DNA of 64,000 nucleotides, taken from IMG/VR virus record IMGVR_UViG_3300033978_000437; one strand, 5' to 3'. Each line of letters starts with the position of its first letter. The stretch's first letter is position 1. The DNA is from a virus. Below are positions 4,497-42,712 of the stretch, one piece after another. The notes under the pieces were generated by a model. It saw only the letters and a list, made by a program, of their open reading frames with translations, made no database searches and had not been told where the DNA came from. Both the position numbers and the translations under genes were made by a program.

Positions 4497-7304
4497 TTAA
4501 ACTACAAGGTGTAATTCAATGTTATTTAATGCGTATGGCACTTCCAAGGTAATGTAAGCGACATACCGATCTTTAAACACTTCTGAAATAAAGAAACGAT
4601 CAACGGTTGCGGTGATTAGCTGCCCGCCGAGTTGGGGAGTGGTCCGCTCTATTCGCAACGCACGAATTAGCCTATCCATCCCGCCAAGAATAATATCGCT
4701 CATTGTTGGGGTCACATTAGTAACACCAATAAAGGGAGCAAAGTAATCCTTGAACCGGTAGCTAATGCTGTCCACATTACGAGTCAGCATTTCTTCACGC
4801 TGGTTGATATCTGCATAGTCCCCAGTTGTTACAGCATGTCGAGTGTAAATTTGACCTGCTGCATCCTGTTGCACAACCCACACGCCAGCAAGAGCTAGAA
4901 TATCTCGCTGTGGCTTGTTGAACTTATCGTTTGTCCGTTGTGTGCTGGAAAAACCAGTAATTTCCACATTGGTCAAACCTTGTTGTGGAAGTACAGCGGA
5001 AGCCAAACCGGCAAGTGCTGCATTCAAAAAGTAACCCGATTGAATGGTACCTGAGGATTCGATTCGGTCAGGCCATGTGGCTCTAACACGTCGATCTCCA
5101 TAAGCACCAGCAGTCTTGGCAATTTCAACAGCTTCTTCACCAGCCGACAAAGTTCGCCAAACTTCAATTTTAGATGGAACCAACTGTTCTACAGCAGGAC
5201 CAGTCTTAACTCGAAGTTGACCTTCAGACTGAACTTCATCTACAACAAATTCGCTGTAAGTGTAGTTGCCAAAGCCGTCACCAGTGTACAACGCACGAAC
5301 GATGTCTCCAGGTCTTACGCCATTTTCTTCAAACCCAGCATTACCTGCGGGAACATAGCAAATGGTGTAGTCAACTGCAGTAGTAGTAGGATCAGCTTCA
5401 AATCTAGCTAAAACAACTTCTCCATCGGTGCTAGTTGCTTCCGTATGATTAGGTACGGTAGAACCGGCTGCTACGACTGGGATTTCAGGAATGCCGTGCA
5501 AGTTTGCCCAGAGCACTCGCCATAACCCTTCAGAAGCGGATGAACAACTATTAACATGAGCTTGGAATAACCCAAGTACTGTTGCATCGTTGGTCAATGG
5601 TACTAGATTGTAGGTGTCATCTCGGCTTAACAACACTTCTAGCACTTCATCCCAATAATTGACATCGTTAGGATCATTAACTGCAGTGTAAAGTACGGGA
5701 GTACCATTACTGTTTGATAATGCCTTAAACACGCCCCACTTAAGAGGATTGTCGGGAGTTAAAGAACCAGAAATATCATCAATGTTGCCAACATCGACAA
5801 TGCTGTTAACCTTGCCAGCCAAGTCGGGCAACCAAGCACGATACTCAACATACAACTCACCATAGCCTGCCTCGTCAGACGAGTAGACATCTAGTGCAGT
5901 AGCTGTGCCAATCTCAGCATCGTAAGCTACAATTCCGGATTTTACAGAAAGCTCAACATCAGACTGTTCCCAGTTGGTAAGAGGAGCCATACCTATACGA
6001 TTTGCAGTCACTTCAAGAAGTGGTTTGCGAATGTACAAATCAATGCCGACTTCTTCATTACCACCAAAGGTTTGATCTAAATTATTCCCAAGCACAATGG
6101 TACGAATTTCACCTTCGCTAGTGCCATTAGCTTGAACATAAAATCGATCACCTTTGCGTAAACCTGCAGTACTGATAAGCTTGAACGAAACACCACGAGT
6201 TCCGATAGGAAGACAAGTGTTATTAGCGATTACTGAAGGGCCACTTTGATCAACACCATCAGTGGTAGCAACAGAGATCTCAGGATAAGCACCCCAAGCA
6301 CCACCTTTAGTGACTGTTACAATATAGTTGGTGTCTGAGTTGCTTACATAAGTTCCGCAAGATGTCGAGGCAGGAGCATCGAACAATTGTGAAACTGTCA
6401 TGGTAAACACTTGACCAACAAGGATGTCCACATCGCTAACACCTGCTGCGGCAGAGGCTGCAACAGTACCTGCGTCAGGAGTGCTACCAAAAGTGACAAG
6501 CAAGCCACGGGTTCCAACTGCAGTTGCACCTGACAACGCCAAAGAGGACTGATTGTCAGTTCCACTTGCAGTAGTTACACGGAAACGAGCGGTAGTCAAG
6601 TCTCCGCCAATGGAACCATCGATAACCGTAAGCGTATAAACTTCATTAATTACACCAGAAGGTAACCCATTGTAGGTACCAGAAGGTGTGATAGTGATAG
6701 AGTTAGCAACACCAGTAGTGCGTACTGCGACAGAGACAGCAGCTTGGGAAGCACTATTAGTAGAAGCTGCGATAGGTGCATCAATGGAGGAGGCAACTAC
6801 GTTTGCAACAAACCCACGGACATAAGTCCATAAGGTAAGCACATCAGAAGTAGCCCCAGAACCATCTGCAACACCTCGTACTCGAACAATATCACCAATT
6901 TTTACATCTCGATTACCCAAAGCGGCATTACGAGCAAACCCACCATTAGACACAAAGTTCACAGTAGCTGATGCAACTCGGTTACGATACCCACTTACTA
7001 CCGTAATAGTAGAACCGCTAGTAGAGGGGTCAGAAAAATACTTTAACAAAGCATCTTTGATAAACAGCTTGGTGTAGCTTGCGTCAACCACGGCACCAGC
7101 TGGGCGCTCAGGCCAAGGGAAAGCCGAGTCAGTACCATTGTCATAAAAACCCAAGTTACCAAATTCTCTTTCGTTTTCATCGCTGTAACGAACGAGTTTG
7201 GCATGACCGCCAGAGATATGTGCTGACAGCGGGTTAGCTGCTGCAGCTGGTTGAATAGTAAAATCTTGGAAAACAAGAACTTGCGGAAGAACATAAGTTG
7301 CCAT
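4497..7304 (-). CDS. Contractile tail sheath protein (enlarged)
   Basis: 935 aa; N-terminal YVLPQVLVFQ and C-terminal sheath-like domain (ALAGLASAVLPQQGLTN...RHAVTT...EEMLTRNVDSISY...YVAYITLEVPYALNNIELHL); upstream of tube-sized gene. Confidence 0.8.
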   Translation of the reverse strand: MATYVLPQVLVFQDFTIQPAAAANPLSAHISGGHAKLVRYSDENEREFGNLGFYDNGTDSAFPWPERPAGAVVDASYTKLFIKDALLKYFSDPSTSGSTITVVSGYRNRVASATVNFVSNGGFARNAALGNRDVKIGDIVRVRGVADGSGATSDVLTLWTYVRGFVANVVASSIDAPIAASTNSASQAAVSVAVRTTGVANSITITPSGTYNGLPSGVINEVYTLTVIDGSIGGDLTTARFRVTTASGTDNQSSLALSGATAVGTRGLLVTFGSTPDAGTVAASAAAGVSDVDILVGQVFTMTVSQLFDAPASTSCGTYVSNSDTNYIVTVTKGGAWGAYPEISVATTDGVDQSGPSVIANNTCLPIGTRGVSFKLISTAGLRKGDRFYVQANGTSEGEIRTIVLGNNLDQTFGGNEEVGIDLYIRKPLLEVTANRIGMAPLTNWEQSDVELSVKSGIVAYDAEIGTATALDVYSSDEAGYGELYVEYRAWLPDLAGKVNSIVDVGNIDDISGSLTPDNPLKWGVFKALSNSNGTPVLYTAVNDPNDVNYWDEVLEVLLSRDDTYNLVPLTNDATVLGLFQAHVNSCSSASEGLWRVLWANLHGIPEIPVVAAGSTVPNHTEATSTDGEVVLARFEADPTTTAVDYTICYVPAGNAGFEENGVRPGDIVRALYTGDGFGNYTYSEFVVDEVQSEGQLRVKTGPAVEQLVPSKIEVWRTLSAGEEAVEIAKTAGAYGDRRVRATWPDRIESSGTIQSGYFLNAALAGLASAVLPQQGLTNVEITGFSSTQRTNDKFNKPQRDILALAGVWVVQQDAAGQIYTRHAVTTGDYADINQREEMLTRNVDSISYRFKDYFAPFIGVTNVTPTMSDIILGGMDRLIRALRIERTTPQLGGQLITATVDRFFISEVFKDRYVAYITLEVPYALNNIELHLVV

Positions 7305-40603: not shown

Positions 40604-40816
40604 ATGCTAGTATTAAGTCGAAGAAAAGGCGAGAGCATTAAGATCAGTGATAACATCACTATCACCATAGTGGACATTCGTGGGGATAAAATTCAAATAG
40701 GAATAGAAGCTCCTCGTGAAGTTGCCGTACACCGTAGCGAAATAGCGAAGTTAATTGAAAATAAACTCAAGGCAGAGTCCAACTTGGAAGCTCCTGAGAA
40801 TCCTTCTGCTTCGTAG
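40604..40816 (+). CDS. csrA: CsrA/RsmA translational regulator
   Basis: MLVLSRRKGESIKISDNITITIVDIRGDKIQIGIEAPREVAVHRSEI matches the family pattern. Confidence 0.92.
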   Translation: MLVLSRRKGESIKISDNITITIVDIRGDKIQIGIEAPREVAVHRSEIAKLIENKLKAESNLEAPENPSAS

Positions 40817-41351
40817 ATTTACTCGTAGCATTGGCAGTGAGTACCCCAGTTTTACGCACTGCCACTATTATGGAAAAATCAGAATCACCTTCAACTTTGG
40901 TAGGTAACCCGTAGCTACGGCGTAACTTACCTAGTTCTGGCGATTTGATTCGCATGTGCCAGCAAGTAGAAACACCGGGCCAACCTTTGGCAGATGTTTC
41001 TTCAAGCCCATCAAGGTAATAGCTAAAAGCTTTACCTCGCTCGCTTATCTTCTCAGTACCACCTATTTGCTTTAATTCTTCGGGGGTCATAACCACGATA
41101 CCTGCACGCAAAGCCCCGCCATCTACAGAAGTGGGTAAAGAAATACCAGGTTCGTGCATTGCGTCGAAAATACCACGGACTAATGCAGTAGGTATGCCAA
41201 CTATCAAGTAACTAGGAGCTGCACATTTTGAATTAGTGATTTGAAGCAAACCCGTCATTTTAACTTCCGCCCATTTCTCGGGCATTTGCAAAACATCATA
41301 GAGCAATAAATGCCGATAATCTGGAATATCAGCTGTAGAGATCAGACTCAT
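40767..41351 (-). CDS. 2H-phosphoesterase-like protein lacking both His motifs
   Basis: Overall pattern resembles phage 2H proteins but LRAGIVVM and DFSIIVA occupy the expected HxT/S positions; SD AGGGAG. Confidence 0.45.
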   Translation of the reverse strand: MSLISTADIPDYRHLLLYDVLQMPEKWAEVKMTGLLQITNSKCAAPSYLIVGIPTALVRGIFDAMHEPGISLPTSVDGGALRAGIVVMTPEELKQIGGTEKISERGKAFSYYLDGLEETSAKGWPGVSTCWHMRIKSPELGKLRRSYGLPTKVEGDSDFSIIVAVRKTGVLTANATSKSTKQKDSQELPSWTLP

Positions 41352-41366
41352 AAAAACTCCCTTAAC

Positions 41367-41720
41367 CTATTTCATAATTGCGGCATAAACTGAAAATGAA
41401 GAAAGCAACACAGTAAGAATCATGCCAGACAAACCTACAACTAACTGTGTTCTAGTGAGCATGCGAGAAGCGGTCATAGAATTGGCATATTGGCTAATTT
41501 GTTCTAAGTCTTTAATCTGACCTTCTAATACTGTCTCTACTTGAGCTAACCGCTGCATAATAGACGGCTGACCATTACCATCTCGTACCAACTTACACAG
41601 GATATGAATGTCCTGACTCATATGATCCACTTTAGCTTCAACTGATGCCACTTGTTGTATTAATCTTTCTTGAGTTAATGCTAAGGCGTGATATTGAGTA
41701 GTTGTCATGCTTCTCGGCAT
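41367..41720 (-). CDS. Coiled-coil protein with C-terminal TM helix (holin/XhlA-like architecture)
   Basis: RDGNGQPSIMQRLAQVE coiled coil; TM LVVGLSGMILTVLLSSFSVYAAIM. Confidence 0.5.
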   Translation of the reverse strand: MPRSMTTTQYHALALTQERLIQQVASVEAKVDHMSQDIHILCKLVRDGNGQPSIMQRLAQVETVLEGQIKDLEQISQYANSMTASRMLTRTQLVVGLSGMILTVLLSSFSVYAAIMK

Positions 41721-41734
41721 CCTTGTAAGAGAAG

Positions 41735-41931
41735 AGAAATAGCTAAGTGGCCCCTTGAGATCCCCTTCCTCAAGTCCAGTGCGGAAGCGTTCCGCTGGTA
41801 ACAGTCATAAGGTGCGACTGGAACTCCACCAGCTGGCTGTTTTTCACTTGCCCAGCAATCCTAATGCAAATTGCGGCTATCCTAGCTGCGCTGCATTTCC
41901 TAACCTATCGGCACCTGCGATAAAGCCACTT
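41735..41931 (-). ncRNA. Candidate ~190-nt multi-hairpin small RNA, GGA-rich (CsrB/RsmZ-like?)
   Basis: Predicted +1 at 41931 is the first base of AAGUGGC, which pairs with GCCACUU (41745-41751); six internal hairpins; 8 GGA; pyrimidine tail. Confidence 0.6.
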
Positions 41932-41937
41932 GGGCTG

Positions 41938-41967
41938 ATTATACCTCTTAAGTAGAGGCAACAGCAA
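41938..41967 (-). promoter_or_regulatory. Sigma70-type promoter for the candidate sRNA
   Basis: TTGCTG-N18-TATAAT. Confidence 0.65.
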
Positions 41968-41986: not shown

Positions 41987-42712
41987 TTAGCTGGCATCTT
42001 TTTTATCCCATAGCCTTTTTAAAAGTTCCCACAAATCGGATTGTAAGTTCTCTTCCTTGTTCTCTACCATCCACTTTTCTACTTCCTTAGCTGTCTCCAT
42101 CATTCGGTCTAAACGCAAGGCACCTATACTGCGAAGCTCTGACACCAAGGTAAGCAGTAACACCCCAGCAGAAGCCGGCACATAGTCTTCTGTTTTACCT
42201 TTTTTAATCTTTATCTCGTCCTCATCCGCTTTGAAGGAATCTTCAACTGGAAGGTAAGCATCGTCATCAAAGATGATTTCTTCGTCATCATCGTCGTCTT
42301 CTTCGTCGCTACCTTCAACCCCTTCCCTACCTTTGTGCCCTTCGTAATTATGGCACTCCTTGTAGTTCTCCTTGTAGTTCTCCTTATATGTATTATCTGT
42401 AGCCAGTTTGCTTTCCAACGAAGAAAAGAAATCAAGCAGATTTTCCGGTCCTATTAGCTTTACTAGTTCTTCTGCATTGTCTGTATACACATAGCAGCAG
42501 GCAATTTCAGCGTGGGTTACGGAATCAGAGTTTTGGCTTAAAGGTAATAAAGTCGTGTACACGAGGCAAGGATAGGATTCTGGGCTTTTAGGTAACTGTA
42601 TCGACAACGAACTGCCATCTGCAGCCATATTCAATTCAGTTATCATATCTTTCTGATAATGCTGCCACTCTTCTTTATTATGAAGCATAACCGCTTTTTT
42701 AAACTTACTCAT
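41987..42712 (-). CDS. Acidic hypothetical protein
   Basis: 241 aa; YKEN x3 micro-repeat and poly-D/E tract; SD AAGGA. Confidence 0.6.
   Translation of the reverse strand: MSKFKKAVMLHNKEEWQHYQKDMITELNMAADGSSLSIQLPKSPESYPCLVYTTLLPLSQNSDSVTHAEIACCYVYTDNAEELVKLIGPENLLDFFSSLESKLATDNTYKENYKENYKECHNYEGHKGREGVEGSDEEDDDDDEEIIFDDDAYLPVEDSFKADEDEIKIKKGKTEDYVPASAGVLLLTLVSELRSIGALRLDRMMETAKEVEKWMVENKEENLQSDLWELLKRLWDKKDAS

Follow-up and report, generated by a model that had tools for sequence, protein, structure and literature searches.

Introduction

Several kinds of described RNA offer comparisons with the phage RNA reported here. In leaders repressed by CsrA or RsmE, such as those of glgC, pgaA and hcnA, a GGA is presented in a hairpin loop overlapping the Shine-Dalgarno sequence, and further GGA sites lie upstream within dimer-bridging distance. 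The phage RNA shares these features, its start-site loop fitting the RsmE/CsrA consensus A/U-C-A-N-G-G-A-N-G-U/A, and a csrA gene is at hand; unlike those loosely structured leaders, it is phage-encoded and comprises a 187-nt tertiary domain with a kissing loop, a domain that also exists in relatives with neither csrA nor the CsrA-type start-site hairpin. With CsrB, CsrC, RsmX, RsmY, RsmZ and the TwoAYGGAY family it has in common several exposed GGA or AGGA sequences, one of them in a short loop, a promoter of its own and a nearby csrA, but it differs from them in lacking a covariance-model match and a terminator and in having fewer sites, and from the CsrB/Rsm sponges also in being compact, with invariant non-GGA elements, and contiguous with an open reading frame.

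The Salmonella fim 5′ UTR and the Campylobacter flaA mRNA are leaders that titrate CsrA, and by analogy the phage 5′ UTR may be a CsrA target and possibly a sink as well; we know of no conserved tertiary fold in the fim and flaA leaders. A further likeness is to the lysine, FMN and cobalamin riboswitches, which are P1-closed multi-helix junctions of 150–200 nt located in 5′ UTRs, with covarying loop-loop interactions and invariant junction nucleotides. Unlike these, the phage RNA has seven helices, has no Rfam riboswitch match and shows no clear expression platform, ligand or metabolic context.

The RNA lies on a 64,000-nucleotide stretch (the window), part of a 178.7-kb IMG/VR virus record (IMGVR_UViG_3300033978_000437), in whose genome the RNA core is single-copy. 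A sequence-only reading had proposed for this site a CsrB/RsmZ-like small RNA, about 1 kb from a phage csrA, acting either in a self-contained phage Csr circuit or as a sponge for host CsrA. A structured, promoter-driven, GGA-rich RNA is indeed found about 1 kb from a genuine phage csrA (82 bits), an arrangement seen in all 30 close relatives whose sequence extends far enough, while the proposed family membership and mode of action fare less well.

A promoter-driven RNA closed by a long-range helix

The minus strand carries a sigma70-type promoter with TTGCTG at 41962-41967, a spacer of 18 and TATAAT at 41938-41943, and the predicted +1 near 41931 is the first base of AAGUGGC, which pairs with GCCACUU at 41745-41751. 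This promoter and closing helix are as the sequence-only reading had described them, and its six stems coincide with the hairpins P2 to P7 listed here, all on the minus strand.

41962-41967, minus strand: −35 element TTGCTG; relatives have TTGCTG, CTCGAC or CTTGAT at the equivalent site
41938-41943, minus strand: −10 element TATAAT; TANNNT lies 6–9 nt ahead of P1 in 39/39 homologues
41745-41931, minus strand: folded RNA core of ∼187 nt, from the 5′ to the 3′ strand of P1 (alignments A3 and A5, model R1)
41923-41931 with 41745-41753, minus strand: closing helix P1; 97% of cells paired, 3/8 pairs changed on both sides
41906-41922, minus strand: hairpin P2; stem 100% paired; loop 41911-41917, CAGGUGC, kisses the P5 loop
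41898-41905, minus strand: junction J2/3, GGUUAGGA; GGUUAGG invariant in the close clade, GGUWAG family-wide
41863-41897, minus strand: hairpin P3; loop U-AGGA-U with GGA at 41880-41882; stems covary
41859-41862, minus strand: junction J3/4, AGGA; C-R-GGA-C-G in most relatives
41830-41858, minus strand: hairpin P4; 96% paired, 6/7 pairs covary; conserved loop AGUGNAAAAC
41825-41829, minus strand: junction J4/5, GUGGA, within the family-wide GGNGG
41798-41824, minus strand: hairpin P5; loop 41807-41815, GCACCUUAU, kisses the P2 loop
41781-41795, minus strand: hairpin P6, of variable length; GGA in the stem at 41793, not conserved
41775-41780, minus strand: junction J6/7, ACUGGA; GG invariant, A in 32/39
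41754-41774, minus strand: hairpin P7; loop GNAGGGGAU; 99.6% paired, 4/6 pairs covary

The promoter is of host type and is placed ∼7 nt ahead of P1. Among the 39 homologues the spacer is variable in length whereas TANNNT is kept in all of them, and the pattern TTGNNN-N16-19-TATAAT occurs just twice in the whole 178.7-kb genome. In several relatives a clear terminator of the upstream gene immediately precedes the promoter of the RNA. We note also that the spacer is filled at 41944-41958 by an inverted repeat, CCUCU-ACUUA-AGAGG, which shows compensating changes in two relatives (L002 and L014) and is lost in more distant ones; it may be an operator, or it may be incidental.

Covariation and a kissing helix define the fold

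Relatives were gathered through the downstream protein, by scanning viral, genome and metagenome collections for a motif pattern and filtering with nhmmer, and through the second downstream protein. The collection comprises 39 distinct close homologues (alignment A3) and 11 distant ones (alignment A5) from uncultured phages; freshwater-lake, estuary and marine (TARA) metagenomes are among the sources. The RNA is far better conserved than its flanks, with ∼92% identity against 74% for the neighbouring protein.

RNAalifold recovers P1 together with six hairpins; of its 48 pairs, 35 show compensatory changes. In the full 58-pair structure 94% of cells hold standard pairs versus 80% in shuffles (none of 500 reach the observed value), and when partners are slid by 1–3 columns only 34–48% of cells pair. 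The covariation that the sequence-only reading had suggested looking for is therefore present, with changes on both sides in 45 of the 58 proposed pairs among the 39 homologues and far lower values in the controls. Distant relatives have a longer P1. The folding energy of the single sequence (MFE −65.1 kcal/mol; z = −0.02 versus shuffles) is uninformative, and because it equals that of shuffles the proof of the structure is comparative.

The loops of P2 (41911-41917) and P5 (41807-41815) form a kissing helix of six pairs, in which 99.6% of cells are paired and all six pairs covary, the versions including AGGUGC/GCACCU, AAACAC/GUGUUU, GGACGU/GCGUCC and UGGCGU/ACGCCG. Complementarity of 5–8 bp between these loops is present in 18 of 18 sequences, the 11 distant ones included, in at least 10 sequence versions. 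The covarying fold and this conserved contact show the RNA to be compact and tertiary-folded. A pseudoknot between the J4/5 GGUGG and the P5 loop was also considered and dropped, as the P2–P5 kissing helix fits all sequences. Other elements are conserved in sequence: the P4 loop motif is invariant among the 39 close homologues, and GGGGA(U/A) in the P7 loop is maintained family-wide. Taken on the comparison of sequences, this is a real, intricately folded RNA of ∼190 bases that comes from an undescribed family of large uncultured phages.

Relationships and distribution of the family

The RNA has no match in Rfam at the gathering score anywhere in the window, and at an E-value of 10 nothing relevant appears when 1 kb of the locus, the RNA alone or a distant homologue is searched. 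The 6S, CsrB and Rsm families, which the sequence-only reading had named for comparison, are among those not matched even at that threshold, as are CsrC, RsmX/Y/Z, PrrB_RsmZ and TwoAYGGAY when their covariance models are applied; the RNA is thus not a CsrB/RsmZ family member, there being no match at any threshold. ARAGORN finds neither a tRNA nor a tmRNA, and our literature search returned no paper describing the RNA family.

In the INPHARED phage collection the locus has no match at the DNA level, and tblastn with the 194-aa protein encoded downstream finds none either, so a cultured relative or host is not known. In genome and metagenome collections the loose pattern matched mostly by chance. 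After filtering of these matches with nhmmer and a covariance model, the sole real one among genome contigs is L058, a 79-kb contig of a Gemmataceae MAG (JBDNHI010000047.1) with the RNA at 2678-2874. This is the only GTDB genome contig with the RNA, and its phage gene order is complete; either phage DNA has been binned here in error or the contig is a clue that the host belongs to the Planctomycetota. Two further records deserve mention. One, L050, from a Rhodoferax MAG, has a weak covariance-model match at 4904-5073 (16.9 bits, E 0.0014) with no phage-like context, and this match is probably due to chance. The other, L229 (IMGVR_UViG_3300036768_001863), is a distant RNA-bearing record classed as a provirus, with an RNA of 73% G+C, and the sequence on either side of that RNA might point to a host.

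The RNA can be obscured by automatic annotation, as false open reading frames are sometimes called over it: in L016 a gene caller placed an 81-aa frame over the RNA at 2680-2925. Recognition of the family guards against such mis-annotation.

GGA triplets and the neighbouring csrA

The 187-nt RNA contains eight GGA triplets, four of them as AGGA and one as the loop of GCUA-GGA-UAGC, exactly as had been counted earlier. The accompanying estimate that about three would be expected by chance agrees with the window average (a mean of 2.7 per 187 nt, with at least eight in just 0.4% of slices on the same strand) but overstates the excess, as the base composition of the RNA itself predicts 4.5 (p = 0.05). 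Six GGA columns, in J2/3, the P3 loop, J3/4, J4/5, J6/7 and the P7 loop, are conserved in 31–36 of the 39 homologues and all are unpaired, although only two of them (P3 and P7) are in hairpin loops; the triplets at 41793, in the P6 stem, and at 41769 are without conservation. In unpaired segments 5.4 GGAs are observed versus 1.9 expected from segment composition (median p 0.004).

In the distant members the pattern weakens. There the triplets of J2/3, J3/4 and J6/7 are reduced to GG (that at J3/4, present in 31–35 of the 39 homologues, is lost from several distant members), and the start sites of the downstream gene are ordinary GGAGG sequences with no hairpin, so the GGA excess may in part reflect a G-rich tertiary core.

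The neighbouring gene is as follows.

40604-40816, plus strand: phage csrA; Pfam CsrA, 82 bits; convergent with the gene for the 194-aa protein, with a 3′ overlap of 50 bp

Its product keeps L2, L4, R6, R7, V40, V42, R44 and I47, residues with a role in RNA binding known from E. coli CsrA. Among distant loci csrA is adjacent to the RNA in just 3 of 12, and two nearly complete genomes carry it at a distance of more than 60 kb. A complete relative of 204.8 kb with terminal repeats has the RNA and the gene for the 194-aa protein and no csrA, from which it follows that the core has a job independent of phage-encoded CsrA. We note that the tail-to-tail overlap between csrA on the plus strand and the gene on the minus strand (40767-40816, 50 bp) is present in all 30 close relatives; transcription of the operon led by the RNA therefore runs antisense into csrA, and the convergence could constitute a mutual-interference circuit.

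The downstream operon and its start site

Downstream of the RNA on the same strand are a hairpin around the next start site and two genes.

41710-41734, minus strand: start-site hairpin CUUCUC [UUACAAGGAUGCC] GAGAAG, with the Shine-Dalgarno GGA (41720-41722) in the loop
41367-41708, minus strand: first gene, 113 aa from the second ATG; coiled coil and C-terminal membrane helix; 42 homologues
40767-41351, minus strand: second gene, 194 aa; 2H-phosphoesterase fold; Pfam 2H-SAK at 23.8 bits (cut-off 27)

The next start codon lies 36 nt past P1 in this phage and 15–50 nt past it in all relatives, close and distant, and no terminator-like site intervenes between the RNA and the open reading frame. 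The transcript is therefore probably a 5′ UTR of the downstream gene, an outcome that the sequence-only reading had itself regarded as contrary to its proposal. In roughly half of the close homologues P1 is directly followed by UUU(U) and, given this U-run, partial termination or processing may release free RNA.

A pyrimidine tail had been noted at the end of the RNA; it is real, and constitutes the 5′ arm, CUUCUC, of the hairpin around the Shine-Dalgarno sequence of the next gene. Between the arms CUUCUC and GAGAAG the loop contains CAAGGAUG, a predicted CsrA-type site of the form CANGGAYG that is found in 24 of 36 relatives and fits the RsmE/CsrA consensus; the usual Shine-Dalgarno sequence of this phage, AAGGAGG, is unlike it. 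A stem of at least 5 bp is present in 76% of 34 relatives versus 41% in shuffles (none of 300 reach the observed value), and it covaries through ∼10 versions, among them CUUCUC/GAGAAG, CUCUU/AAGAG, CAAAC/GUUUG and CAUUU/AAAUG. The GGA of the P7 loop (41763) is 41 nt and that of J6/7 (41777) 55 nt upstream of the Shine-Dalgarno GGA (41722). Work by Mercante and colleagues in 2009 reportedly showed one CsrA dimer bridging sites 10–63 nt apart, and both upstream GGAs fall within that range. By inspection no alternative pairing of the kind that would form a switch is conserved; the pyrimidine tail was considered in this role as a partner of the P7 loop or of J4/5, and neither pairing is conserved.

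Gene callers choose the second-ATG start for the 113-aa gene. Its product belongs to no Pfam or PHROG family; a resemblance to XhlA-type phage lysis accessory proteins comes from an Atlas feature search alone (score 0.92) and is only a lead. For the 194-aa protein an AlphaFold model (pLDDT 70) has 2H proteins as all of its 21 best VIA-align matches (Z 7.2 to 4.0), the best being the anti-CBASS nuclease Acb1 at Z 7.2, with CPDase, LigT and Usb1 also present, and Foldseek against the PDB gives no significant match. The family is without the two canonical HxT/S motifs (alignment A4): at the first position Y/H is followed by L-I-V, and the second reads H(90%)-L-x-I, with no T/S in either. Many Arg and Lys residues are nonetheless invariant, and the protein may bind a nucleotide or RNA without cleaving it.

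The order of elements is constant in the close clade, the RNA being followed by a coiled-coil membrane protein of 113–160 aa, the protein of 185–194 aa and the convergent csrA. Three loci (L132, L134 and L215) are without the gene for the membrane protein, and in these the RNA stands directly ahead of the ∼190-aa gene. A search of IMG/VR with the 194-aa protein returned 17 loci, down to 37% identity, and in 16 of these the covariance model detects the RNA upstream of the gene, in the same orientation. It is thus the operon, and not csrA, with which the RNA is most deeply associated.

Traces in metatranscriptomes

In one estuary metatranscriptome 140 nt of the RNA (41763-41902) recur without a change in a contig of depth 60.7, and contigs of the 113-aa open reading frame have depths of 4–7 in the same run, though contig depth is a poor measure of expression, transcript ends are unreadable from contigs and uncovered parts mean nothing. 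Contigs spanning the promoter occur in a marine metatranscriptome run. These contigs do no more than hint at accumulation of the folded part, and the higher depth fits a free RNA equally. Elsewhere, an acidic low-complexity stretch of the 241-aa upstream protein (42272-42316) draws unrelated metatranscriptome contigs, and the depth there is an artefact.

Discussion

We consider it somewhat better than an even chance that the RNA is a cis-acting 5′ leader of the two-gene operon, belonging to a new phage RNA family and wired to CsrA in the present clade. The host-type promoter would transcribe a P1-closed domain of P2 to P7, locked by the P2/P5 kissing helix, as the leader of the 113-aa tail-anchored membrane protein and then the 194-aa 2H-fold protein. 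In the present clade CsrA, whether of the phage or the host, would dock on the CANGGAYG loop of the start-site hairpin, and a dimer could bridge from there to a second GGA 41–55 nt upstream, in the P7 loop or J6/7, and thereby keep ribosomes from entering. The remaining exposed GGAs, those of the P3 loop and of the junctions, could strengthen binding or incidentally titrate part of the CsrA. Because the core survives in relatives without csrA it presumably has a further, csrA-independent job, which could be the sensing of a ligand or protein or the stabilisation of the 5′ end.

The same independence from csrA is consistent with an orphan riboswitch-like sensor, whose core would bind a small molecule and control the operon without CsrA, the GGAs being part of a G-rich binding core. 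The conserved, covarying, aptamer-like domain sits in a 5′ UTR behind its own promoter; its P1-closed multi-helix junction, loop-loop contact and invariant junction bases are those of large riboswitches; and the product of the constant downstream gene is folded like phosphodiesterases that act on nucleotides and RNA ends. We nevertheless regard such a sensor as unlikely, since no expression platform with competing pairings was found, the start-site hairpin alone being seen, the downstream genes are neither metabolic nor transport genes, no ligand is indicated, and the CANGGAYG start-site hairpin and strict csrA adjacency in the close clade would be left unexplained.

The original proposal of a CsrB/RsmZ-like sponge, a free and abundant ∼190-nt RNA in which six GGAs sequester host or phage CsrA, or both, in trans, now appears improbable. 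It would account for the ∼3-fold enrichment of the six conserved unpaired GGAs and for the P3 hairpin, whose AGGA pentaloop (U-AGGA-K-A) resembles CsrB repeats and keeps its GGA in 36 of the 39 homologues. The csrA adjacency in 30 of 30 relatives, the U-run after P1 in about half of the homologues and the ∼10-fold greater depth of the RNA piece than of the reading-frame pieces in one metatranscriptome are also as it would predict. Against it are the failure of Rfam Csr/Rsm or TwoAYGGAY models to match even at E 10, and a compact, rigid fold with a covarying kissing loop and invariant non-GGA motifs (AGUGNAAAAC, GGUUAG, GGNGG and GGGGAU). An intrinsic terminator is absent and the operon start site is 15–50 nt on; the GGAs decay in distant members; the RNA occurs in a complete genome without csrA and in others where csrA is more than 60 kb off; and the invariant partner of the RNA is the 2H-fold gene. 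A dual role as target and sink would, we note, reconcile the leader and sponge readings.

That invariant partner raises the alternative of a stand-alone RNA that is partner or substrate of the 194-aa protein, forming an RNP with it or having its ends modified by it. The two occur together in 16 of 17 loci, even between deeply diverged members; RNA ends are substrates of 2H enzymes; and this protein, though without the canonical catalytic HxT/S pairs, keeps many Arg and Lys residues invariant. A leader and its operon explain the co-occurrence equally well, however, there is no evidence of processing sites, and the fold match is moderate (Z 7.2, model pLDDT 70), so that we hold this alternative very unlikely. 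We attach a marginally smaller chance still, that of a long shot, to a more specific idea, in which the core, acting like a riboswitch, would sense a nucleotide-derived signal (for instance a cyclic oligonucleotide or a 2′,3′-cyclic phosphate species produced in the course of host defence) and switch on the Acb1-like protein, which would remove or bind the signal; control through csrA would be an addition peculiar to the clade. We give almost no credence to the notion that the conservation stems from a protein gene, the 66-aa plus-strand frame at 41755-41955: it is present in the window and has a 65-aa counterpart in L003, but it is not maintained in homologues (the longest stop-free stretch on the plus strand is 29–70 aa across the 39, no better than on the sense strand), the helix substitutions are compensatory, contrary to a coding origin, and in nearly all contigs the gene callers predict nothing in the gap.

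Few large RNAs have a proven tertiary fold, and new classes of them have tended to reveal new biology. The covariation behind the present fold, that of the kissing loop included, is unusually strong. The family is spread through uncultured phages of 150–235 kb from lakes, estuaries and oceans, and in one clade it appears as a fixed module with a phage csrA and what look, from their sequences, like textbook CsrA docking motifs. It thereby offers a concrete, testable case of a virus applying the Csr system to its own genes, one not described in the literature that we searched. Its constant partner, a 2H-fold protein related in shape to anti-CBASS nucleases, points to a possible RNA-controlled counter-defence.
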